A stretch of 33,471 nucleotides of DNA from an uncultured Dehalococcoidia bacterium (GCA_964624525.1 CAZUZX010000002.1:1-33471), one strand, 5' to 3'. Positions 12,699-25,782 are shown, counted from the first letter of the stretch. A program made the numbers and translations. Notes: a model not told the origin generated them from the letters alone.

Positions 12699-12774
12699 TG
12701 GTGGGCGGTAGTGGATTTGAACCACTGACCCCTGCGATGTCAACGCAGTACTCTAACCACTGAGCTAACCGCCC
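12699..12774 (-). tRNA. tRNA-Val (anticodon GAC), CCA encoded
   Basis: Reverse complement: GGGCGGT-TA-GCTC-AGTGGTTA-GAGT-A-CTGCG-TTGACAT-CGCAG-GGGTC-AGTGG-TTCAAAT-CCACT-ACCGCCC-A-CCA. This is a complete 76-nt cloverleaf folded by hand. Confidence 0.9.
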
Positions 12775-20272: not shown

Positions 20273-21442
20273 TTATATAAAGTGTACTTTAGGAATAAGG
20301 AAGCCGTCGAACTGGGAAGCATAGGCAGTGGTATAAGCGCCAGCGGACTTTATATACACCTTATCTCCCACCTCTAACTCCGGGAGTTCTGCTTCAGTTG
20401 AGATGATGTCAAAACTATCGCAGGAAGGTCCGGCTAATACCCATTTGCTGGTTTTACTGCCCTTTTTAGTCACCATTGGGTATTTAATGCCACCCACAGT
20501 TTCCATCAAGCCATTAAATACGCCAACATCTAAATAAAGCCATTTTTCTTCATTTCGAGCTGCCTTGGCGATGACTGTAGCCACCAAGGTGCCCGCTTCC
20601 CCTACCAGAGCCCTTCCTGGTGCGACTACCAGCTCTATATCTTTTGGAAAGTTTTCGGCTAGGGAGTCTCTGATTACCTGGGCAATCTCGGCAATAGAAG
20701 GCACTGATTTTATATATTTAATCGGGAAGCCGCCGCCAATATTTAATAGGTGTAACTCTATACCTTTGCTTCTAGCCAATTCCCAAACCACTCTGCTCTT
20801 CTCAATCGCTTTCGCCCAGGTGGTAGCTTTGGCGCATTGCGAGCCAACATGAAAAGCAATACCATAAGGCTGAAGTCCTTTCTCTTTAGCTTGCACTAAT
20901 AGTTCAGCCGCCTCTTCCGTTTCCACACCGAATTTCTTACTTAGCGGCCATTCACTACCTTCGTTAGATACAGAAAGACGCACATAGACCTTACTACCAG
21001 GGGCAAATCTCGATAGCTTTTCTATCTCTGACTCGGAATCGAAAGCAAACAGGTTTATTCCCTTAGAGTAAGCAGAGTTGATGAAAACCTGGTCTTTGAC
21101 CGGATTGCTGGATATAATCTTCTGCGGTGAGATACCCAATCGGAGCAGGAGTTCCAGCTCCCCTTGGGATGAAATCTCGAAACCACAACCGAGCTCATGC
21201 AGAAGCTCTACAATGCCGGGGTGCGGATTGGCTTTGAGCGCATAGTAGATTTTAGCCCCAGCGAATTGGTGGCAGAACTCCTGGTATTTCTCTTTTATCG
21301 CTCTCTTGTCTATGATAAGAGCTGGTGTCCCCCCAGCCCCTGGGATTTTTCCCATAGCTTTTGGCGAAGGCGAATTCAGGTCATTAATATGCAACCTCAA
21401 TGTTAAACTCCTTGTAAGCCTACTTCTAATAGAGAATCTCAC
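20273..21442 (-). CDS. PLP-dependent Orn/Lys/Arg/DAP decarboxylase family 2 enzyme (probable ornithine or lysine decarboxylase)
   Basis: Motifs YALKANP, HVGSQ, GGGF and SCDS. It is adjacent to speE. The start is uncertain: GTG at 21442 or ATG at 21355 (MGKIPGAGG...). Confidence 0.8.
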   Translation of the reverse strand: MRFSIRSRLTRSLTLRLHINDLNSPSPKAMGKIPGAGGTPALIIDKRAIKEKYQEFCHQFAGAKIYYALKANPHPGIVELLHELGCGFEISSQGELELLLRLGISPQKIISSNPVKDQVFINSAYSKGINLFAFDSESEIEKLSRFAPGSKVYVRLSVSNEGSEWPLSKKFGVETEEAAELLVQAKEKGLQPYGIAFHVGSQCAKATTWAKAIEKSRVVWELARSKGIELHLLNIGGGFPIKYIKSVPSIAEIAQVIRDSLAENFPKDIELVVAPGRALVGEAGTLVATVIAKAARNEEKWLYLDVGVFNGLMETVGGIKYPMVTKKGSKTSKWVLAGPSCDSFDIISTEAELPELEVGDKVYIKSAGAYTTAYASQFDGFLIPKVHFI

Positions 21443-21487
21443 TAAAGGTTAAAGCATTTGGGGCGAAGTCGAACGGCTCAAGCACCT

Positions 21488-21700
21488 TTAGCAATCGTCA
21501 GCCCAAAGAATGTCATCTAACCGAAGGGCTATATCACTTCCTGGATGTGAGAATCTATCTCCAGTATTTGGAATATGTCCAACGCATCCCCAATCTAAAT
21601 CTATCTTTTTACCACCGTCATAGAAGTAGTAGTAATGATTTCCCTCATCATCAACCTCGTGATAAACTGTAACGCTACTATTGTTTCTCAGCTTCCTCAT
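21488..21700 (-). CDS. Hypothetical acidic 70-aa protein, last gene of the four-gene cassette
   Basis: The ATG overlaps the stop of the 343-aa ORF (ATGA). By hand count it has 13 D/E versus 7 K/R. It carries the aromatic run HYYYFYDGG. No motif recognised. Confidence 0.55.
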   Translation of the reverse strand: MRKLRNNSSVTVYHEVDDEGNHYYYFYDGGKKIDLDWGCVGHIPNTGDRFSHPGSDIALRLDDILWADDC

Positions 21701-22728
21701 ATGCTCACCTTCTCGAACAAGATATCGTTATTTTTGACCTCATACTTAATAAATATAATCCCTCTGTCGCTAAAATCGCTGTTTTTTGCTTTAGTTATTG
21801 CTTCCTCATTAAAATCAAAGGCAATCAAAATTGGCTGAACTGTTTCAATTTCACTACCAGCAAGTCTTCCTGCTACCCATTTGGAGTAATTAATGACTTG
21901 AGAAACATTTTCACCATTTGCTGCATCTCTTTTTAATTCCACGATACTGAATTTATATCTTAAAGGTAGATCCGTATACCTCATATTCTTATGATAACAG
22001 AGGATATCTATATTTTTCCTCGTTACATGATAGGGGACATTATTTGCAAACCATTCCAAATCCTCGACAGGGCCAAAAATCTCCCTTAAATCAACCCTTT
22101 TAGGGTTATCAATGTTTTTAATTAACCAAGCTCTCAATATGTCTTCTAAATATGCTTTGCCATCCTGATCCAGTGGCAACATGATTTTAATCTTACTTTT
22201 TGAAGGGTATGGTTTAATTTGAGCGGGCTTGTTAATAGCGCTTCCATTTATTTTGACAAGAAGCTCCATCAATGCCTCGGCAGCTTCGGGGTTTATTGTA
22301 TTAATGCCCCTTGCTCCTTGGATTTTCCTATAAAACCATCCCCAGAATTTTGCTTCATATTCTTTTGTAGAAAACAGATAATCTTCGGGAACTGGCTTGG
22401 CAAAGTAATTTAGACATTCAATCTCTAGTCTTATTGGCCAAGTTTCATCCACACATTCTATTGGCGTGGGGTCAAAAAATGGTTCACTAGAAACCCTGAA
22501 TACACCGTGAAATCCTCTTTGCCTTTCATACAAAAAAGCTATATCTCCCACCCGTGTCCCCCAAATATCTCCAAGCATTGCAAAGTAAGGTTTTCTTGGA
22601 TTTTTCAGGTTTTCCTCAATTAAAGCTTCTAAGGAGTTAGGTATCCCCTTTACCCCCACTCCCCAAAAACTATTATCCCTAACAGTAGGGAAAGTTCTTT
22701 CGTCTGTAATAAAAACGTGGGCTCTCAT
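21697..22728 (-). CDS. Fusion protein: N-terminal PUA-like (EVE/ASCH-like) domain + C-terminal NucS/DUF91-like PD-(D/E)xK nuclease domain (predicted)
   Basis: The N-terminal ~130 aa follows the EVE/ASCH beta-barrel pattern (FWGVGVKG......GDIAFLYERQRGFHGVFRVSSEPFFDPTP...WPIRLEIE). The C-terminus (NIDILCYHK....YKFSIVELKRDAANGENVSQVINYSKWV) follows the D...ExK...Q..Y signature of NucS-like nucleases. Spot GC counts are low. Confidence 0.6.
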   Translation of the reverse strand: MRAHVFITDERTFPTVRDNSFWGVGVKGIPNSLEALIEENLKNPRKPYFAMLGDIWGTRVGDIAFLYERQRGFHGVFRVSSEPFFDPTPIECVDETWPIRLEIECLNYFAKPVPEDYLFSTKEYEAKFWGWFYRKIQGARGINTINPEAAEALMELLVKINGSAINKPAQIKPYPSKSKIKIMLPLDQDGKAYLEDILRAWLIKNIDNPKRVDLREIFGPVEDLEWFANNVPYHVTRKNIDILCYHKNMRYTDLPLRYKFSIVELKRDAANGENVSQVINYSKWVAGRLAGSEIETVQPILIAFDFNEEAITKAKNSDFSDRGIIFIKYEVKNNDILFEKVSI

Positions 22729-22729
22729 T

Positions 22730-22957
22730 TCAATGCCTTGCGGTTTTGAAGGCCTCTTTCGCCTCTACCCACCATTTTTGAGGCAATCCTCTTGATGAAG
22801 CAAAGGGAATCACAAATTCCCCTTCGTTTTTATGATTGTAAACATCTAAATTGAAAATTCCATCTCCAATGAAATCATCAATATCAAACGTAAGCTTTAA
22901 TAGATATTCCTCTCCGTCGACTACGATAGATTTTTCAAGTTTCTTCATAGATTTCAC
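22730..22957 (-). CDS. Hypothetical 72-75-aa protein, second gene of the cassette
   Basis: The track start is GTG at 22957. ATG at 22948 is better, preceded by AAGGAG plus 8 nt (MKKLEKSIVV...). The start lies inside the 3' end of the MTase-like ORF. The stop is 1 nt from the ATG of the 343-aa ORF. Confidence 0.55.
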   Translation of the reverse strand: MKSMKKLEKSIVVDGEEYLLKLTFDIDDFIGDGIFNLDVYNHKNEGEFVIPFASSRGLPQKWWVEAKEAFKTARH

Positions 22958-23444
22958 TCCTTACCTCTGTTTTAACATTCCAAGGATTTGCTGCCTTATC
23001 AATAAGCTCTCGGCTTCTTTCTACCAGGGCTGGCACAAGCTCAACCCCTATGCCATTTCGTCCTAACCTTTTACACTCTATTAGCGTTGTGCCACTCCCC
23101 GAGAAGGTATCAAGCACAGTCTCTCCACGCTTGGTATAGCGCAGCATTGCTTGATGAGGAATCTGGGGGATAAAGTTTCCGTGCAATTCTGCGGTGTGGA
23201 CACTTGTTTTATCTCGGCTTCCCAGAAGCCATAGACTATCGGTCATTATCTCCTGATAATCTTTCCACCGATTAAGGTCAATATCATTAAGGAAGGAAAC
23301 CCGGGGATGTTCAGACTCTGGGATTTCTAAAACCTTCGGTGCTTCTTCTATGTCTAAGTAAATGTTTAGACCTAGCTGCTCGGAGATAAAGCCAGCTTCT
23401 TTGGATTGTGAAGGCTCGTATTCAGGAGTTTTCCTTTTAGCCAT
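22935..23444 (-). CDS. N6/N4 DNA-methyltransferase-like protein containing only the SAM-binding (motif I) half, with no (D/S/N)PP(Y/F/W) catalytic motif
   Basis: SLWLLGSRDKTSVHTAELHGNFIPQIPHQAMLRYTKRGETVLDTFSGSGTTLIECKRLGRNGIGVEL matches the C-terminal part of beta-class (PF01555-type) MTases (S.W......HPA.FP..L.....gd.VLDPF.GSGTT). The whole protein is 169 aa, and its first ~70 aa carry no PPY/PPF. Confidence 0.65.
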   Translation of the reverse strand: MAKRKTPEYEPSQSKEAGFISEQLGLNIYLDIEEAPKVLEIPESEHPRVSFLNDIDLNRWKDYQEIMTDSLWLLGSRDKTSVHTAELHGNFIPQIPHQAMLRYTKRGETVLDTFSGSGTTLIECKRLGRNGIGVELVPALVERSRELIDKAANPWNVKTEVRSEIYEET

Positions 23445-23472
23445 CTTCTAGTCGCCCTCTTTCTACTTTCTC

Positions 23473-25782
23473 TTAGCAAATTATATCACTTCTTACTTTG
23501 AAAATTTCACCTGTTAACCCCCCAAGTATCACCTCAGCAGCCTTCTTATCCAGGGGCTGGTTATTGTTGCCACACTTGGGTGATTGAGTGCAACTGGGAC
23601 AGCCATCCTCGCAGGGGCATTCGACAATCACCTTCAGCGTCTCCTGCCACAAATCCTCGATTAGGTCAAAGCCTTTCTCACTAATCCCTGTTCCTCCGGG
23701 GTGAGCATCATAAATGAAAACCTGCGCCTTCCCGGTATCAGGATGAAAGGCGGTAGATATGCCACCGAGGTCATTACGGTCACATAAAGCAAACAAAGGT
23801 AGTATGGCGATGGAGGCATGCTCAGCAGCGTGTAAACCCCCGACAAAGTCAAGCCTAGCTTCAGCTACCTTCCCTACGGCTTTTTGGGGTATATCAAACC
23901 ATAAGGCTGTGGTGTTAAAGCAGTAGGGAGGTAAGTCGAGGGGCTCTTCGCCGATAACTTCCTCAGTGAACTGCATCTTTTTTTTAAAGCCAACTACGGT
24001 AGTGGTCACCTCAACTTCACCGAGGTAAGTTTTGGCTTGCAGCGTGTCTTTCTCTTTAATTCTCTTTAGTATCCGGAGGTCGGTAAGCTCCTTGGCTTGG
24101 GTGTAGTAAGGGACATCAGTGGGCACCACATAGGCAATATGGGCAATTAAATTAAGCTCGATGACTAAATAGGGCTCGCCTTGATGTAGATAGATAGCCC
24201 CGGGATGAATTTGAGAAAAAGCCACACTAGCTTCTACTGTTTCCAGTGGCTTATTACTCTGAGAGGCATCCAAGATAGTGTAGTAAAAAGAGGAGGTAGA
24301 GCGGATATTAACCTCTTCAGCCGGGTAGGCAACAGTCGGCATAAGATACCATTTCCCACCCCGCGCCTTGAGCATTTTCTCCGCTTCTAGTTCCTCCCTG
24401 GCTTTCATAAAGCTAGTCTCCCAGAATTGTTCATCAGCTTCGCTTAAGGGTAGTTCCCAGGCAGCACATAAGAGGTGGCTATTTAACACATAGGGGTTAT
24501 CCGGAGCAGTGAGGGCATTTTCAAATTTTTTCCGGAAAAGAAACCAAGGATGACGCATAAGGTATTGATCCAGAGGATTATCTAGTCCGATGAGAAAGCT
24601 CAGAGAGCTTCCGGTTCTCCTTCCGCTCCGCCCTGCCTGCTGCCAGGTGCTGGCAATACTTCCCGGGTAGCCGGTGAGGATGGTAGCCTCCAAATCACCG
24701 ATGTCTATCCCCAGCTCAAGCGCAGTGGTAGCTACTATTCCCAGGAGCTGACCTTGAAAGAGCTCTCGCTCTATCTGGCGTCTCTCCTCAGGAAGATAGC
24801 CAGCCCGATATGGCTTAATTTGCCGTGCCAGGTTGGGCTCAGCCAATTGCCGTTTAGAATAGGTATAGATAAGCTCAGTGAGCTTGCGGGTTCGGGCAAA
24901 GGCAAGGGTACGGATGCCCTGGCGCACTAATTCAGCCAGAAGGAAAGAGGCCTCGGTGTTAGCACTACGGCGAGATATTTTGGCTTCGTCAAGGAAGGGC
25001 GGATTCCACAGGATAAAGTCCTTTGCCCCATGGGGAGAGCCATCCTTATCAATTACTGTGAAGGGTAATCCCACCAGCCGCTCAATGTGCTCCTTTGGGT
25101 TAGCAATAGTAGCGGAGCAGCAGATAAACTGGGGGTAGGCATGGTAAAAAGTACAAAGACGCCGTAATCTTCGTAATATATTACCCACGTGAGAGCCAAA
25201 GACGCCGCGGTAAATATGGGCTTCATCAATCACGACATACCTCAAGCGGCGGAAAAACCTTGACCAGGCTTGATGATTAGGGAGAATGCCCAAATGAAGC
25301 ATATCGGGGTTAGTGAGCACAATCTGGGCTTCTCTCTTTATCTGCAAGCGCTCCTCTGAGGGTGTATCACCGTCGAAGGTGGCAAATCTTATCTCGAGAG
25401 GAAGTAGTGAGAGCAACTCCGCTAAACTGCGCCGTTGGTCCTGGGCTAGCGCTTTGGTGGGAAAGAGATAAAGGGCACGGCTTCCTCTGTCATTCAAAAT
25501 AGCTTGCAGTATGGGCAGATTGTAGCATAATGTTTTGCCACTGGCAGCAGGGGTAACTACCATGATATTCTTCCCCAAGTTAGCCATATTTAACGCTGCG
25601 GCTTGGTGGGTATAGAGGGGGAGTAACCCCGCTCTTTGTAGTGCAGACTCCAAGGCGGTGTGGAGAGGTTTGTCCAGTTCTTGGTAGCTTGCCTCCTGAA
25701 GCGGCAAATGTTCGATGTGGACTATCTGATCTTGATAGTTGGCTAAGCGTTTAATATGGTTAACAAAGGCGGCAACATTCAT
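23473..25782 (-). CDS. DEAH-box SF2 helicase with C-terminal DUF1998/MZB zinc domain (MrfA/YprA/Hrq1-like)
   Basis: Motif I is TPAASGKT, motif II is DEAH (VVIDEAHIY) and motif VI is QQAGRSGRR. The C-terminal CPCEDGCPSCTQSPKCGNNNQPLDK four-Cys cluster is typical of DUF1998. 769 aa. Confidence 0.85.
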   Translation of the reverse strand: MNVAAFVNHIKRLANYQDQIVHIEHLPLQEASYQELDKPLHTALESALQRAGLLPLYTHQAAALNMANLGKNIMVVTPAASGKTLCYNLPILQAILNDRGSRALYLFPTKALAQDQRRSLAELLSLLPLEIRFATFDGDTPSEERLQIKREAQIVLTNPDMLHLGILPNHQAWSRFFRRLRYVVIDEAHIYRGVFGSHVGNILRRLRRLCTFYHAYPQFICCSATIANPKEHIERLVGLPFTVIDKDGSPHGAKDFILWNPPFLDEAKISRRSANTEASFLLAELVRQGIRTLAFARTRKLTELIYTYSKRQLAEPNLARQIKPYRAGYLPEERRQIERELFQGQLLGIVATTALELGIDIGDLEATILTGYPGSIASTWQQAGRSGRRTGSSLSFLIGLDNPLDQYLMRHPWFLFRKKFENALTAPDNPYVLNSHLLCAAWELPLSEADEQFWETSFMKAREELEAEKMLKARGGKWYLMPTVAYPAEEVNIRSTSSFYYTILDASQSNKPLETVEASVAFSQIHPGAIYLHQGEPYLVIELNLIAHIAYVVPTDVPYYTQAKELTDLRILKRIKEKDTLQAKTYLGEVEVTTTVVGFKKKMQFTEEVIGEEPLDLPPYCFNTTALWFDIPQKAVGKVAEARLDFVGGLHAAEHASIAILPLFALCDRNDLGGISTAFHPDTGKAQVFIYDAHPGGTGISEKGFDLIEDLWQETLKVIVECPCEDGCPSCTQSPKCGNNNQPLDKKAAEVILGGLTGEIFKVRSDIIC

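Follow-up and report, generated by a model that had tools for sequence, protein, structure and literature searches.

Organization of the cassette

The subject of this analysis is a four-gene cassette in a stretch of 33,471 nucleotides (nt) from an uncultured Dehalococcoidia bacterium (GCA_964624525.1 CAZUZX010000002.1:1-33471), hereafter the window, the core of which encodes a 343-amino-acid (aa) protein predicted to fuse an EVE domain to a NucS-like PD-(D/E)xK nuclease. Its four open reading frames (ORFs) all lie on the minus strand and follow one another, tightly packed, in the order half-methyltransferase, 72-aa protein, 343-aa nuclease, and 70-aa protein. A first-pass annotation had singled out these genes, located between a MrfA-type helicase and polyamine genes, as a candidate system for defence or for DNA modification or adduct processing. 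Related loci are designated below by L numbers, and the features of the window that concern the cassette are as follows.

22935..23444, minus strand: 169-aa half-methyltransferase, with the leader, pre-motif-I region, and motifs I-III (FSGSGTT), lacking the catalytic lobe
22730..22948, minus strand: 72-aa protein (s75 family, 236 proteins), start at ATG 22948
21697..22728, minus strand: 343-aa protein, predicted EVE plus NucS-like PD-(D/E)xK nuclease (AlphaFold2, Foldseek, profiles), constant core of the cassette
22291..22728, minus strand: predicted EVE (PUA-like) domain, ~aa 1-146 (PDB profile, Foldseek, Pfam)
21700..22065, minus strand: predicted NucS-like PD-(D/E)xK domain, ~aa 222-343 (invariant residues, PDB profile, Foldseek, Pfam)
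22008-22006 (D241), 21939-21937 (E264), and 21933-21931 (K266), minus strand: predicted catalytic residues (alignment of 68 relatives)
21488..21700, minus strand: 70-aa protein (s70 family), found downstream of the nuclease gene in 22/63 loci
23480..23488, minus strand: candidate extended -10 promoter, TGATATAAT, of the form TGnTATAAT, ~35 nt upstream of the first ATG
21364..23500, minus strand: inserted segment of ~2.14 kb, missing from the 91%-identical relative L102 and containing the GC minimum of the contig

The ORF junctions described at first pass agree with our coordinates. Specifically, the 169-aa ORF, whose ATG is the first of the cassette, begins 28 nt after the stop of the helicase and overlaps the next ORF by 14 nt when that ORF is started from its ATG or by 23 nt from a GTG; the ATG of the 343-aa gene follows 1 nt after the stop of the 72-aa ORF; and the 343-aa and 70-aa ORFs overlap in an ATGA. 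The second ORF can be read as 75 aa from the GTG (22957..22730); homologues begin at ATG 22948, which has an AAGGAG 8 nt upstream and gives the 72-aa form.

The impression of a foreign core, formed at first pass from spot counts of guanine plus cytosine (GC), was upheld by a full scan. The cassette is compositionally foreign, as the 1-kb stretch with the least GC anywhere in the 33-kb contig falls within it (0.371 at 21501-22600; contig mean of 0.468, standard deviation [SD] of 0.028), and third-codon-position GC (GC3) is 0.33-0.34 in the 72-, 343-, and 70-aa genes versus 0.473 (SD of 0.038) in 22 other ORFs. The methyltransferase-like ORF deviates less (GC of 0.445, GC3 of 0.40). Further, the TGnTATAAT box is equally placed in the cassette of L025, which sits in a different genomic context. 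Because the nucleotide similarity between the window and L025 starts at the insertion boundary (window 23498) and includes this box, the cassette probably brings its own promoter, although a consensus promoter scan of the window did not have the box in its list.

Acquisition by insertion

The event that placed the cassette in the window can be read from L102, a 10-kb contig found via the protein cluster to which the spermidine synthase of the window belongs. L102 is ~91% identical to the window at the nucleotide level across all shared stretches, and the two have a common gene order (FtsH, DUF503, helicase, decarboxylase, spermidine synthase), with only 1 nt between the helicase stop and the decarboxylase start in L102. 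The alignment covers window 26409-23506 and 21363-19383, and 11 nt of L102 replace ~2.14 kb of the window. Because so close a relative has the helicase and the decarboxylase 1 nt apart, the four-gene block is a horizontally acquired insertion of ~2.14 kb. A CAAA(A)G microhomology (5-6 nt) is present at each of the two junctions, and beyond it, we found no convincing terminator or longer flanking repeats by which a mobile element could be delimited. The comparison also moves the downstream border of the intergenic space: the mechanical 389-aa decarboxylase ORF from GTG 21442 is overextended, its first ~29 codons (21356-21442) being inserted DNA, and with the true start at ATG 21355, the cassette is followed by a gap of 132 nt and not the ~45 nt of the first-pass annotation.

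The 343-aa EVE-nuclease

Searched alone, the 343-aa protein gives only weak matches, to Pfam EVE (0.015, below the Pfam cut-off), NCBIfam NucS (0.016), and PADLOC PDC-S02 (9.6e-5). The last of these is partial (residues 194-332 on profile positions 181-302 of 308), and a sister family of ~364 aa matches a different PDC-S02 model at 0.002; the match probably reflects the shared nuclease core only. We found 274 homologues, the best 120 of which all have at least 73% identity and are named from Dehalococcoidia, Chloroflexi, WOR-3, Omnitrophica, and Sumerlaeota, and an exhaustive profile search gave 542 clusters (50% identity). The sister family comprises 764 proteins, including some from archaeal metagenome-assembled genomes (MAGs), and aligns over its full length with the 343-aa protein at 26% identity. 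In annotated records, relatives are labelled "hypothetical protein".

A family profile and alignment were built from 68 diverse members with the window protein as the reference row. Against PDB sequences, the profile matched the EVE proteins MJECL36 (2p5d; 2.3e-8) and PH1033 (1wmm; 2.9e-8), and NucS (2vld; 5.8e-3), the last in an alignment that spans the ELK...Q...Y stretch, and Pfam detected EVE in 22/68, NucS_C in 6/68, and YhcG_C in 4/68 of the members. An AlphaFold2 model from the same alignment was of high confidence (predicted local distance difference test [pLDDT] of 94.8, predicted TM-score [pTM] of 0.92) and superseded an earlier, poor one made from 29 close homologues (pLDDT of 59.7, ~28 in the nuclease core). 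In Foldseek, its N-terminal domain matched PH1033 (2hd9; 1.1e-7, target TM-score of 0.69), MJECL36, YTHDF2, THYN1 bound to 5-methylcytosine (5mC) DNA, and the EVE-HNH enzyme VcaM4I (6yex; 9.3e-4), and its C-terminal domain matched NucS (2vld; 6e-4). Across the 68 relatives, four residues never vary (D241, E264, Y281, and W284) and two hardly do (K266 and Q277); all of the invariant residues are intact in the window copy. The reader-nuclease fusion proposed at first pass is thereby borne out by PDB profiles, the structural model, Foldseek, and Pfam in relatives, all of which predict an EVE reader joined to a PD-(D/E)xK nuclease with an intact active-site motif. Within the EVE domain, the conserved aromatic and charged residues W129, Y133, R134, K135, D62, and R100 are compatible with, though no proof of, a base pocket.

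The plasmid collection yielded a single relative, a solitary 390-aa "hypothetical protein" with 33% identity on a megaplasmid of Halobaculum limi (L101:4740-5912; NZ_CP120469.1), a cultured haloarchaeon in which the homologue is possibly tractable for experiments.

Distribution, mobility, and selection

We fetched 93 loci, 72 of them non-redundant, and mapped the reference proteins onto them. The nuclease gene is the sole constant part across the 72 loci, which come from several phyla, at 65-100% identity. The fullest operons (L066, L036, L073, L038, L046, L060, and L072) consist of a ~360-aa methyltransferase, an s75 gene, the nuclease gene, and a variable downstream module, which is either a 195-aa protein, an s70 gene with or without a 364-type paralogue, or an s89 gene with the paralogue or the 195-aa protein. 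The order half-methyltransferase, s75, nuclease, and s70 (or s89) occurs in L019/L010, L017, L021, L054, L047, L048, L037, L020, L088, and others, and the four-gene order of the window is seen again in at least 10 other non-redundant loci. The four genes are thus linked in other genomes too, as the first-pass annotation required in order to stand, and their arrangement is one reduced version of a modular family whose only fixed member is the 343-aa gene.

The ratio of nonsynonymous to synonymous substitution rates (dN/dS; pairwise, Nei-Gojobori) shows that every part of the cassette is under purifying selection, the medians being 0.08 (nuclease), 0.09 (methyltransferase fragment), 0.15 (s75), and 0.19 (s70). 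An intact methyltransferase is missing at 28/33 loci in which the nuclease gene is nonetheless full-length (counted within each locus; a protecting methyltransferase could lie elsewhere in these genomes), and nuclease genes without a methyltransferase have a dN/dS of 0.06-0.10. The nuclease is independent of the methyltransferase, as it stays under purifying selection without one, a situation in which a classical restriction enzyme would not be expected to persist.

The cassette is mobile, and identities of at least 73% across distant uncultivated phyla show that it has spread recently and widely by horizontal transfer. The GC of the nuclease gene is 31-39% in most loci, against flanking GC of 25% to 58% in the hosts. 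Values above this range are confined to some higher-GC hosts (42-43% in L031 and L068; 48-57% in L051, L091, and L090), as would be expected if long-resident copies have ameliorated. A different picture emerges at one chromosomal site, where 13 loci (L015, L016, L017, L019, L021, L047, L048, L037, L051, L011, L089, L091, and L093) have either the cassette or a lone nuclease gene between apgM and an aspartokinase gene, with gyrA further on. In L089, L091, and L093, the nuclease gene is solitary at this site (dN/dS of 0.07). That 13 loci, most of those of the window type among them, occupy the one site points to vertical inheritance over a long time in a Dehalococcoidia-like clade, with a step-wise loss of accessory genes. 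The window's copy sits elsewhere.

A methyltransferase that repeatedly lost its catalytic lobe

The 169-aa ORF matches Pfam N6_N4_Mtase (1.5e-11) over only profile positions 168-217 of 221 and PADLOC MTase_II PDLC03351 (1.9e-44) over positions 87-195 of 348, the S-adenosylmethionine (SAM)-binding middle. It is 62% identical to aa 122-231 of a 342-aa enzyme in L008, and the HPPY motif of that enzyme (aa 259-262) has no counterpart in it. Hence, as noted at first pass, this is a SAM-binding, methyltransferase-like protein without a catalytic motif, and because the N-terminal ~110 aa and the entire catalytic lobe, including xPPY, are missing, its sequence predicts that it cannot methylate. The C-terminal half of the methyltransferase went undetected in the window and in long related loci, even at E <= 10. 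We also considered that the cassette might have inserted into a methyltransferase gene and split it, and rejected this, as no locus has a C-terminal methyltransferase piece downstream.

Full-length versions of the upstream gene (L036, L066, L073, and L008) match the entire PDLC03351 profile at 1e-134. They are ~360 aa long and are related, through circular permutation, to the beta-class N6/N4 enzymes; HPPY takes the catalytic position. N6/N4 enzymes normally carry D/N/S-PPY, from which the HPPY of these four full-length proteins departs.

At the 33 loci with at least 1.3 kb of upstream sequence, the catalytic part is kept in 5, a fragment remains in 15, and nothing remains in 13. The fragments end at residues of about 48, 99, 104, 156, 176, 191, 198, 204, 208, 216, 220, 229, 236, and 265, and in L040, an internal deletion has removed residues 202-334. 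Every one of these deletions removes HPPY and retains the 5' end, and their differing endpoints mark them as many independent events. Several of the deletions are in frame and preserve a ...VYE(K/E)T end overlapping the start of s75, as might be expected if selection maintains translational coupling. In L019, L021, and L054, the deletion junction is common to all three, and these loci therefore diverged after the truncation (segment dS of 0.3-1.2). Among them, dN/dS is 0.01-0.03 in the pre-motif-I region and 0.03-0.08 in motifs I-III, versus 0.13-0.28 in the leader and 0.4-0.8 in the short tail by the junction. Because the core is so much more constrained than the tail, the SAM-binding lobe has been kept as a protein since the truncation while the junction debris drifts. 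Elsewhere, the truncation has gone further (102 aa in L037, 119 aa in L025, 72 aa in L088, and the leader only in L051 and L052), and in those lineages, the SAM-binding lobe is dispensable.

L021 additionally carries a 281-aa methyltransferase-like ORF on the opposite strand, ~3.2 kb upstream of the nuclease gene. This ORF clusters with the cassette methyltransferase family and could methylate in trans in that genome.

Small partner proteins and downstream modules

The 72-aa and 70-aa ORFs gave no match in Pfam, PADLOC, PHROG, or PDB; both represent real families of small proteins that are conserved. The s75 family numbers 236 proteins of ~76 aa in a database of 5.8 billion proteins, and its gene lies upstream of the nuclease gene in 34/64 loci. 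Members of s70 are mostly 70-74 aa and end in ...ILWADD(C/P). In 15/63 loci, s70 is replaced by s89, a Cys-rich form of 85-93 aa that has an N-terminal pattern in common with s70 and is probably related to it; searches with the two forms found no known relatives of either. The possibility that the 70-aa ORF is a 5' remnant of the 364-aa paralogue was discarded, since the N-terminus of the paralogue resembles the 343-aa protein instead.

The s75 family is not confined to the EVE-nuclease. In Desantisbacteria and Altiarchaeales MAGs (L094:4001-5251 and L097:4001-5711), s75 is followed by an unrelated 243-aa NmeDI_C nuclease, the N-terminus of which resembles a winged-helix domain, and then by an 85-91-aa ORF. 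Because it also precedes this unrelated nuclease, s75 looks like an interchangeable partner of nucleases.

The 195-aa downstream protein has a DIFF...FDLK motif and a ...YTAVTKVLIIT end, and is present whole or in part in 17/63 loci (for example, L066:3776-4363, L079:7183-7770, and 11 further loci). It had no match in Pfam, PADLOC, PHROG, or PDB. As its gene is intact beside broken methyltransferases in L041, L076, L079, and L052, the idea that the methyltransferase and the 195-aa protein form a classical restriction-modification pair on either side of the nuclease finds no support, and the 195-aa protein is probably a second, methyltransferase-independent nuclease candidate. In L099 (4231-4440; L100 alike), a 69-aa ORF joins the ~27 first residues of the EVE-nuclease to the ~40 last residues of the 195-aa protein. 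This is a deletion remnant, from which it follows that the nuclease gene can decay too.

Relation to known systems

The first-pass annotation had not recognised the layout as that of any named system, which stands insofar as PADLOC called no named system (a generic MTase_II and the weak PDC-S02 only). It does not stand for the core, since EVE-PD(D/E)XK proteins already figure in the literature among the predicted type IV restriction enzymes (Bell, Wolf and Koonin 2020, PMC7641849). That class, like the 343-aa family, combines an EVE reader with PD-(D/E)xK, occurs in diverse bacteria and archaea, has divergent EVE domains that need sensitive detection, and was predicted from sequence and context; we assign the 343-aa protein to it, as a prediction from domain architecture. 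Relative to this computational grouping, the 343-aa family has a NucS-like core and a helical middle region, partners of ~76 aa upstream and 70-93 aa downstream, and an ancestral operon headed by a methyltransferase.

Proven modification-dependent endonucleases are found among the EVE-HNH enzymes, the genes of which rarely adjoin methyltransferases (PMC6765204). VcaM4I and TspA15I (PMC7897488, PMC6765204) resemble the 343-aa protein in having an N-terminal EVE sensor and a C-terminal nuclease and in being encoded by stand-alone, methyltransferase-free genes. Their nuclease is HNH, however, rather than PD-(D/E)xK, the identity is ~11%, they have no small partner genes, and their specificity for 5mC and 5-hydroxymethylcytosine (5hmC) is not transferable to the 343-aa protein. 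END nucleases (PMC12191111) were considered as relatives and set aside, as they have an inactive EndoIII sensor instead and are unrelated.

With NucS/EndoMS (2vld, 5gke), the 343-aa protein has in common a C-terminal RecB-like PD-(D/E)xK domain with ELK...Q...Y behind a beta-rich N-terminal domain. In contrast to NucS, that N-terminal domain is predicted to be EVE and not NucS_N, and the gene is mobile, dispensable, and patchy; the match to the NCBIfam NucS equivalog (NF003270) is limited to residues 260-334 and reaches 14.2 bits, where the cut-off is 216. The PDLC03351 type II N6/N4 methyltransferases are circularly permuted kin of the beta-class enzymes TTHA0409 (2zie) and M.MboIIA (1g60). 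Unlike a classical type II restriction-modification system, the window's cassette has no methyltransferase with a catalytic motif, and the nuclease and methyltransferase are not retained together (5, 15, and 13 of the 33 loci, as above). Finally, the helicase next to the cassette carries the MrfA Zn-binding (MZB) domain of the MrfAB system, which repairs mitomycin C adducts in B. subtilis, but a helicase-nuclease linkage is not conserved around the EVE-nuclease. MrfB is a DnaQ-like exonuclease and not an EVE/PD-(D/E)xK protein.

Interpretation and alternatives

The reading we favor, with a probability of about 0.5, is that of a horizontally acquired cassette with a type IV-like, modification-dependent EVE-NucS nuclease as the effector, accompanied by conserved accessory proteins. 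Under this model, the EVE domain would recognise a modified base in incoming DNA by flipping it out, the NucS-like PD-(D/E)xK domain would then cut, and the nuclease would act stand-alone, needing no protecting methyltransferase. The ancestor would be a larger operon, in which a ~360-aa N6/N4 methyltransferase gene was followed by those for a ~76-aa protein and the nuclease and by a variable downstream module, from which lineages would repeatedly have dropped the catalytic lobe of the methyltransferase, while the 5' end, with its TGnTATAAT box and translational coupling, stayed. In the window lineage, the SAM-binding lobe and the two small proteins would still be at work, most likely in regulating or partnering the nuclease. 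The insertion, the two folds, the intact active-site motif, the mobility, the selection on each part, and the independence from the methyltransferase and the helicase are established by the data above; we infer the dependence on modified DNA, the anti-phage role, and the roles of the accessory proteins from these comparisons.

Several observations weigh against this interpretation. First, no characterised EVE-PD(D/E)xK member was found in the literature, and the ancestral operon is headed by a methyltransferase, intact at 5 loci, even though modification-dependent enzymes rarely adjoin methyltransferases. Second, the 13 loci at the fixed apgM-aspartokinase-gyrA site, where the nuclease gene is sometimes solitary and its GC partly ameliorated, form a pattern no less expected of a domesticated housekeeping or repair gene than of a defence gene. 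Third, no homologues of the nuclease were found in viral contigs or the phage collection, and the cassette has no defence-island neighbours in the window. Last, the dN/dS estimates come from pairwise comparisons of few sequences, with dS saturated in many pairs.

A more elaborate possibility, which we hold only tentatively, is that the half-methyltransferase is an exapted subunit that, with the two small proteins, forms a new, multicomponent, modification-sensing nuclease system. The dead methyltransferase might then sense SAM, sense DNA, or control the EVE-nuclease, and the repeated deletion of the catalytic lobe would be adaptive and not decay, for example, if it put a stop to self-methylation that would be read by the EVE domain. 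The repeated loss of the catalytic lobe, with the SAM-binding lobe kept under strong constraint, goes beyond the known picture, as does the occurrence of the ~76-aa partner family beside an unrelated nuclease. The conserved dead methyltransferase could be the new part, the nuclease class having already been predicted.

The main competitor, in our view rather unlikely, is a domesticated repair nuclease, in which the EVE domain would read a damaged or altered base or a mismatch and the NucS-like domain would nick or cut. By analogy, this draws on NucS/EndoMS, which flips out mismatched bases. The NucS-like C-terminal domain suits it, as do the housekeeping genes around the window's cassette and the fixed site, with its three solitary, constrained (dN/dS of 0.07), and partly ameliorated copies. 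Yet an identity of 73-87% across phyla, in unrelated contexts and at low GC, is what is usually seen in mobile genes for defence or restriction rather than in core repair genes, the gene travels with methyltransferase and nuclease modules, and its absence from L102 means that it is dispensable; nor does the protein have the N-terminal domain of NucS or approach the NCBIfam NucS cut-off (14 bits versus 216).

An addiction module, akin to a toxin-antitoxin pair, would have one or both of the small proteins, and possibly the half-methyltransferase, restrain the nuclease as a toxin, such that loss kills the cell and the cassette would persist with or without any protection from phage. The overlapping, coupled ORFs, the small proteins on either side of the nuclease gene, and the purifying selection on all parts would be expected of such a module, and the s75 gene in front of the 243-aa NmeDI_C-type nuclease is reminiscent of an interchangeable antidote; moreover, EVE domains occur in predicted toxin-antitoxin systems (PMC7641849). 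We nevertheless regard it as improbable, since the nuclease is intact and constrained without s75 (30/64 loci), without s70 or s89, or wholly solitary. Because it is constrained in loci missing each partner, no single partner is required for viability, and neither sequence nor structure supports binding of a small protein to the nuclease.

Still less plausible is a decaying classical type II restriction-modification system, with the methyltransferase freshly broken and the block becoming pseudogenes. Such decay would account for the type II profile match of the full-length upstream gene (1e-134) and for the remnants at many loci, including the fusion of the nuclease N-terminus to the 195-aa C-terminus. 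An unprotected restriction enzyme would be lethal, however, whereas 28/33 loci have no intact methyltransferase and a nuclease dN/dS of 0.06-0.10; the truncated methyltransferase has been conserved since truncation (dS of 0.3-1.2, core dN/dS of 0.01-0.08), and the window copy of the nuclease retains all invariant residues. Least credible is the first-pass alternative of a helicase-partnered repair nuclease, with the EVE-nuclease as an MrfB substitute for bulky-adduct repair, for although a DEAD/MZB helicase (TIGR03817, 870 bits) on the same strand ends 28 nt ahead of the cassette, the latter has its own conserved promoter-like box, tblastn with the window helicase found no homologue at any other fetched locus, and L102 keeps the helicase beside the decarboxylase without the cassette, by which a conserved helicase-nuclease partnership is already refuted.

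If the modification-dependent reading holds, the family would belong to the EVE-PD(D/E)xK branch that has been predicted within modification-dependent restriction, and being compact, well conserved, and confidently modelled, it is suited to a first biochemical characterisation of that branch.

Flanking genes and other features of the window

One further feature lies upstream of the cassette.

23473-25782, minus strand: helicase with DEAD, Helicase_C, HRQ1 winged-helix, and MZB domains

In a comparison with TIGR03817 ("helicase/secretion neighborhood DEAH-box helicase"), this protein reached 870.4 bits, slightly below the curated cut-off of 874.1, and an exact look-up of the protein returned no record. 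The insert encodes its last ~10 codons (IFKVRSDIIC*, 23473-23505), the native end in L102 being ...GK*, and the TIGR03817 model, which stops near residue 756 of 769, agrees with an insert-derived end. A homologue of the decarboxylase was likewise absent from all other fetched loci. Because L102 shows the empty site, the adjacency of the cassette to the helicase and the polyamine genes is accidental, set by where the insertion landed. The polyamine neighbourhood noted at first pass is a result of that landing place, and, for annotation, a false lead is removed, with the MrfA-type helicase and the polyamine genes being bystanders.

Rfam and tRNA scans found nothing inside or adjoining the cassette, and the only RNA family in the window is a tRNA-Val (GAC) at 12699-12774, distant from it. 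Polyamine genes occur nearby in one other case, in Omnitrophica L008 (738-1974), where speD (S-adenosylmethionine decarboxylase) and speE (spermidine synthase) lie ~4-5 kb upstream of the intact methyltransferase-nuclease operon, which is probably a coincidence.

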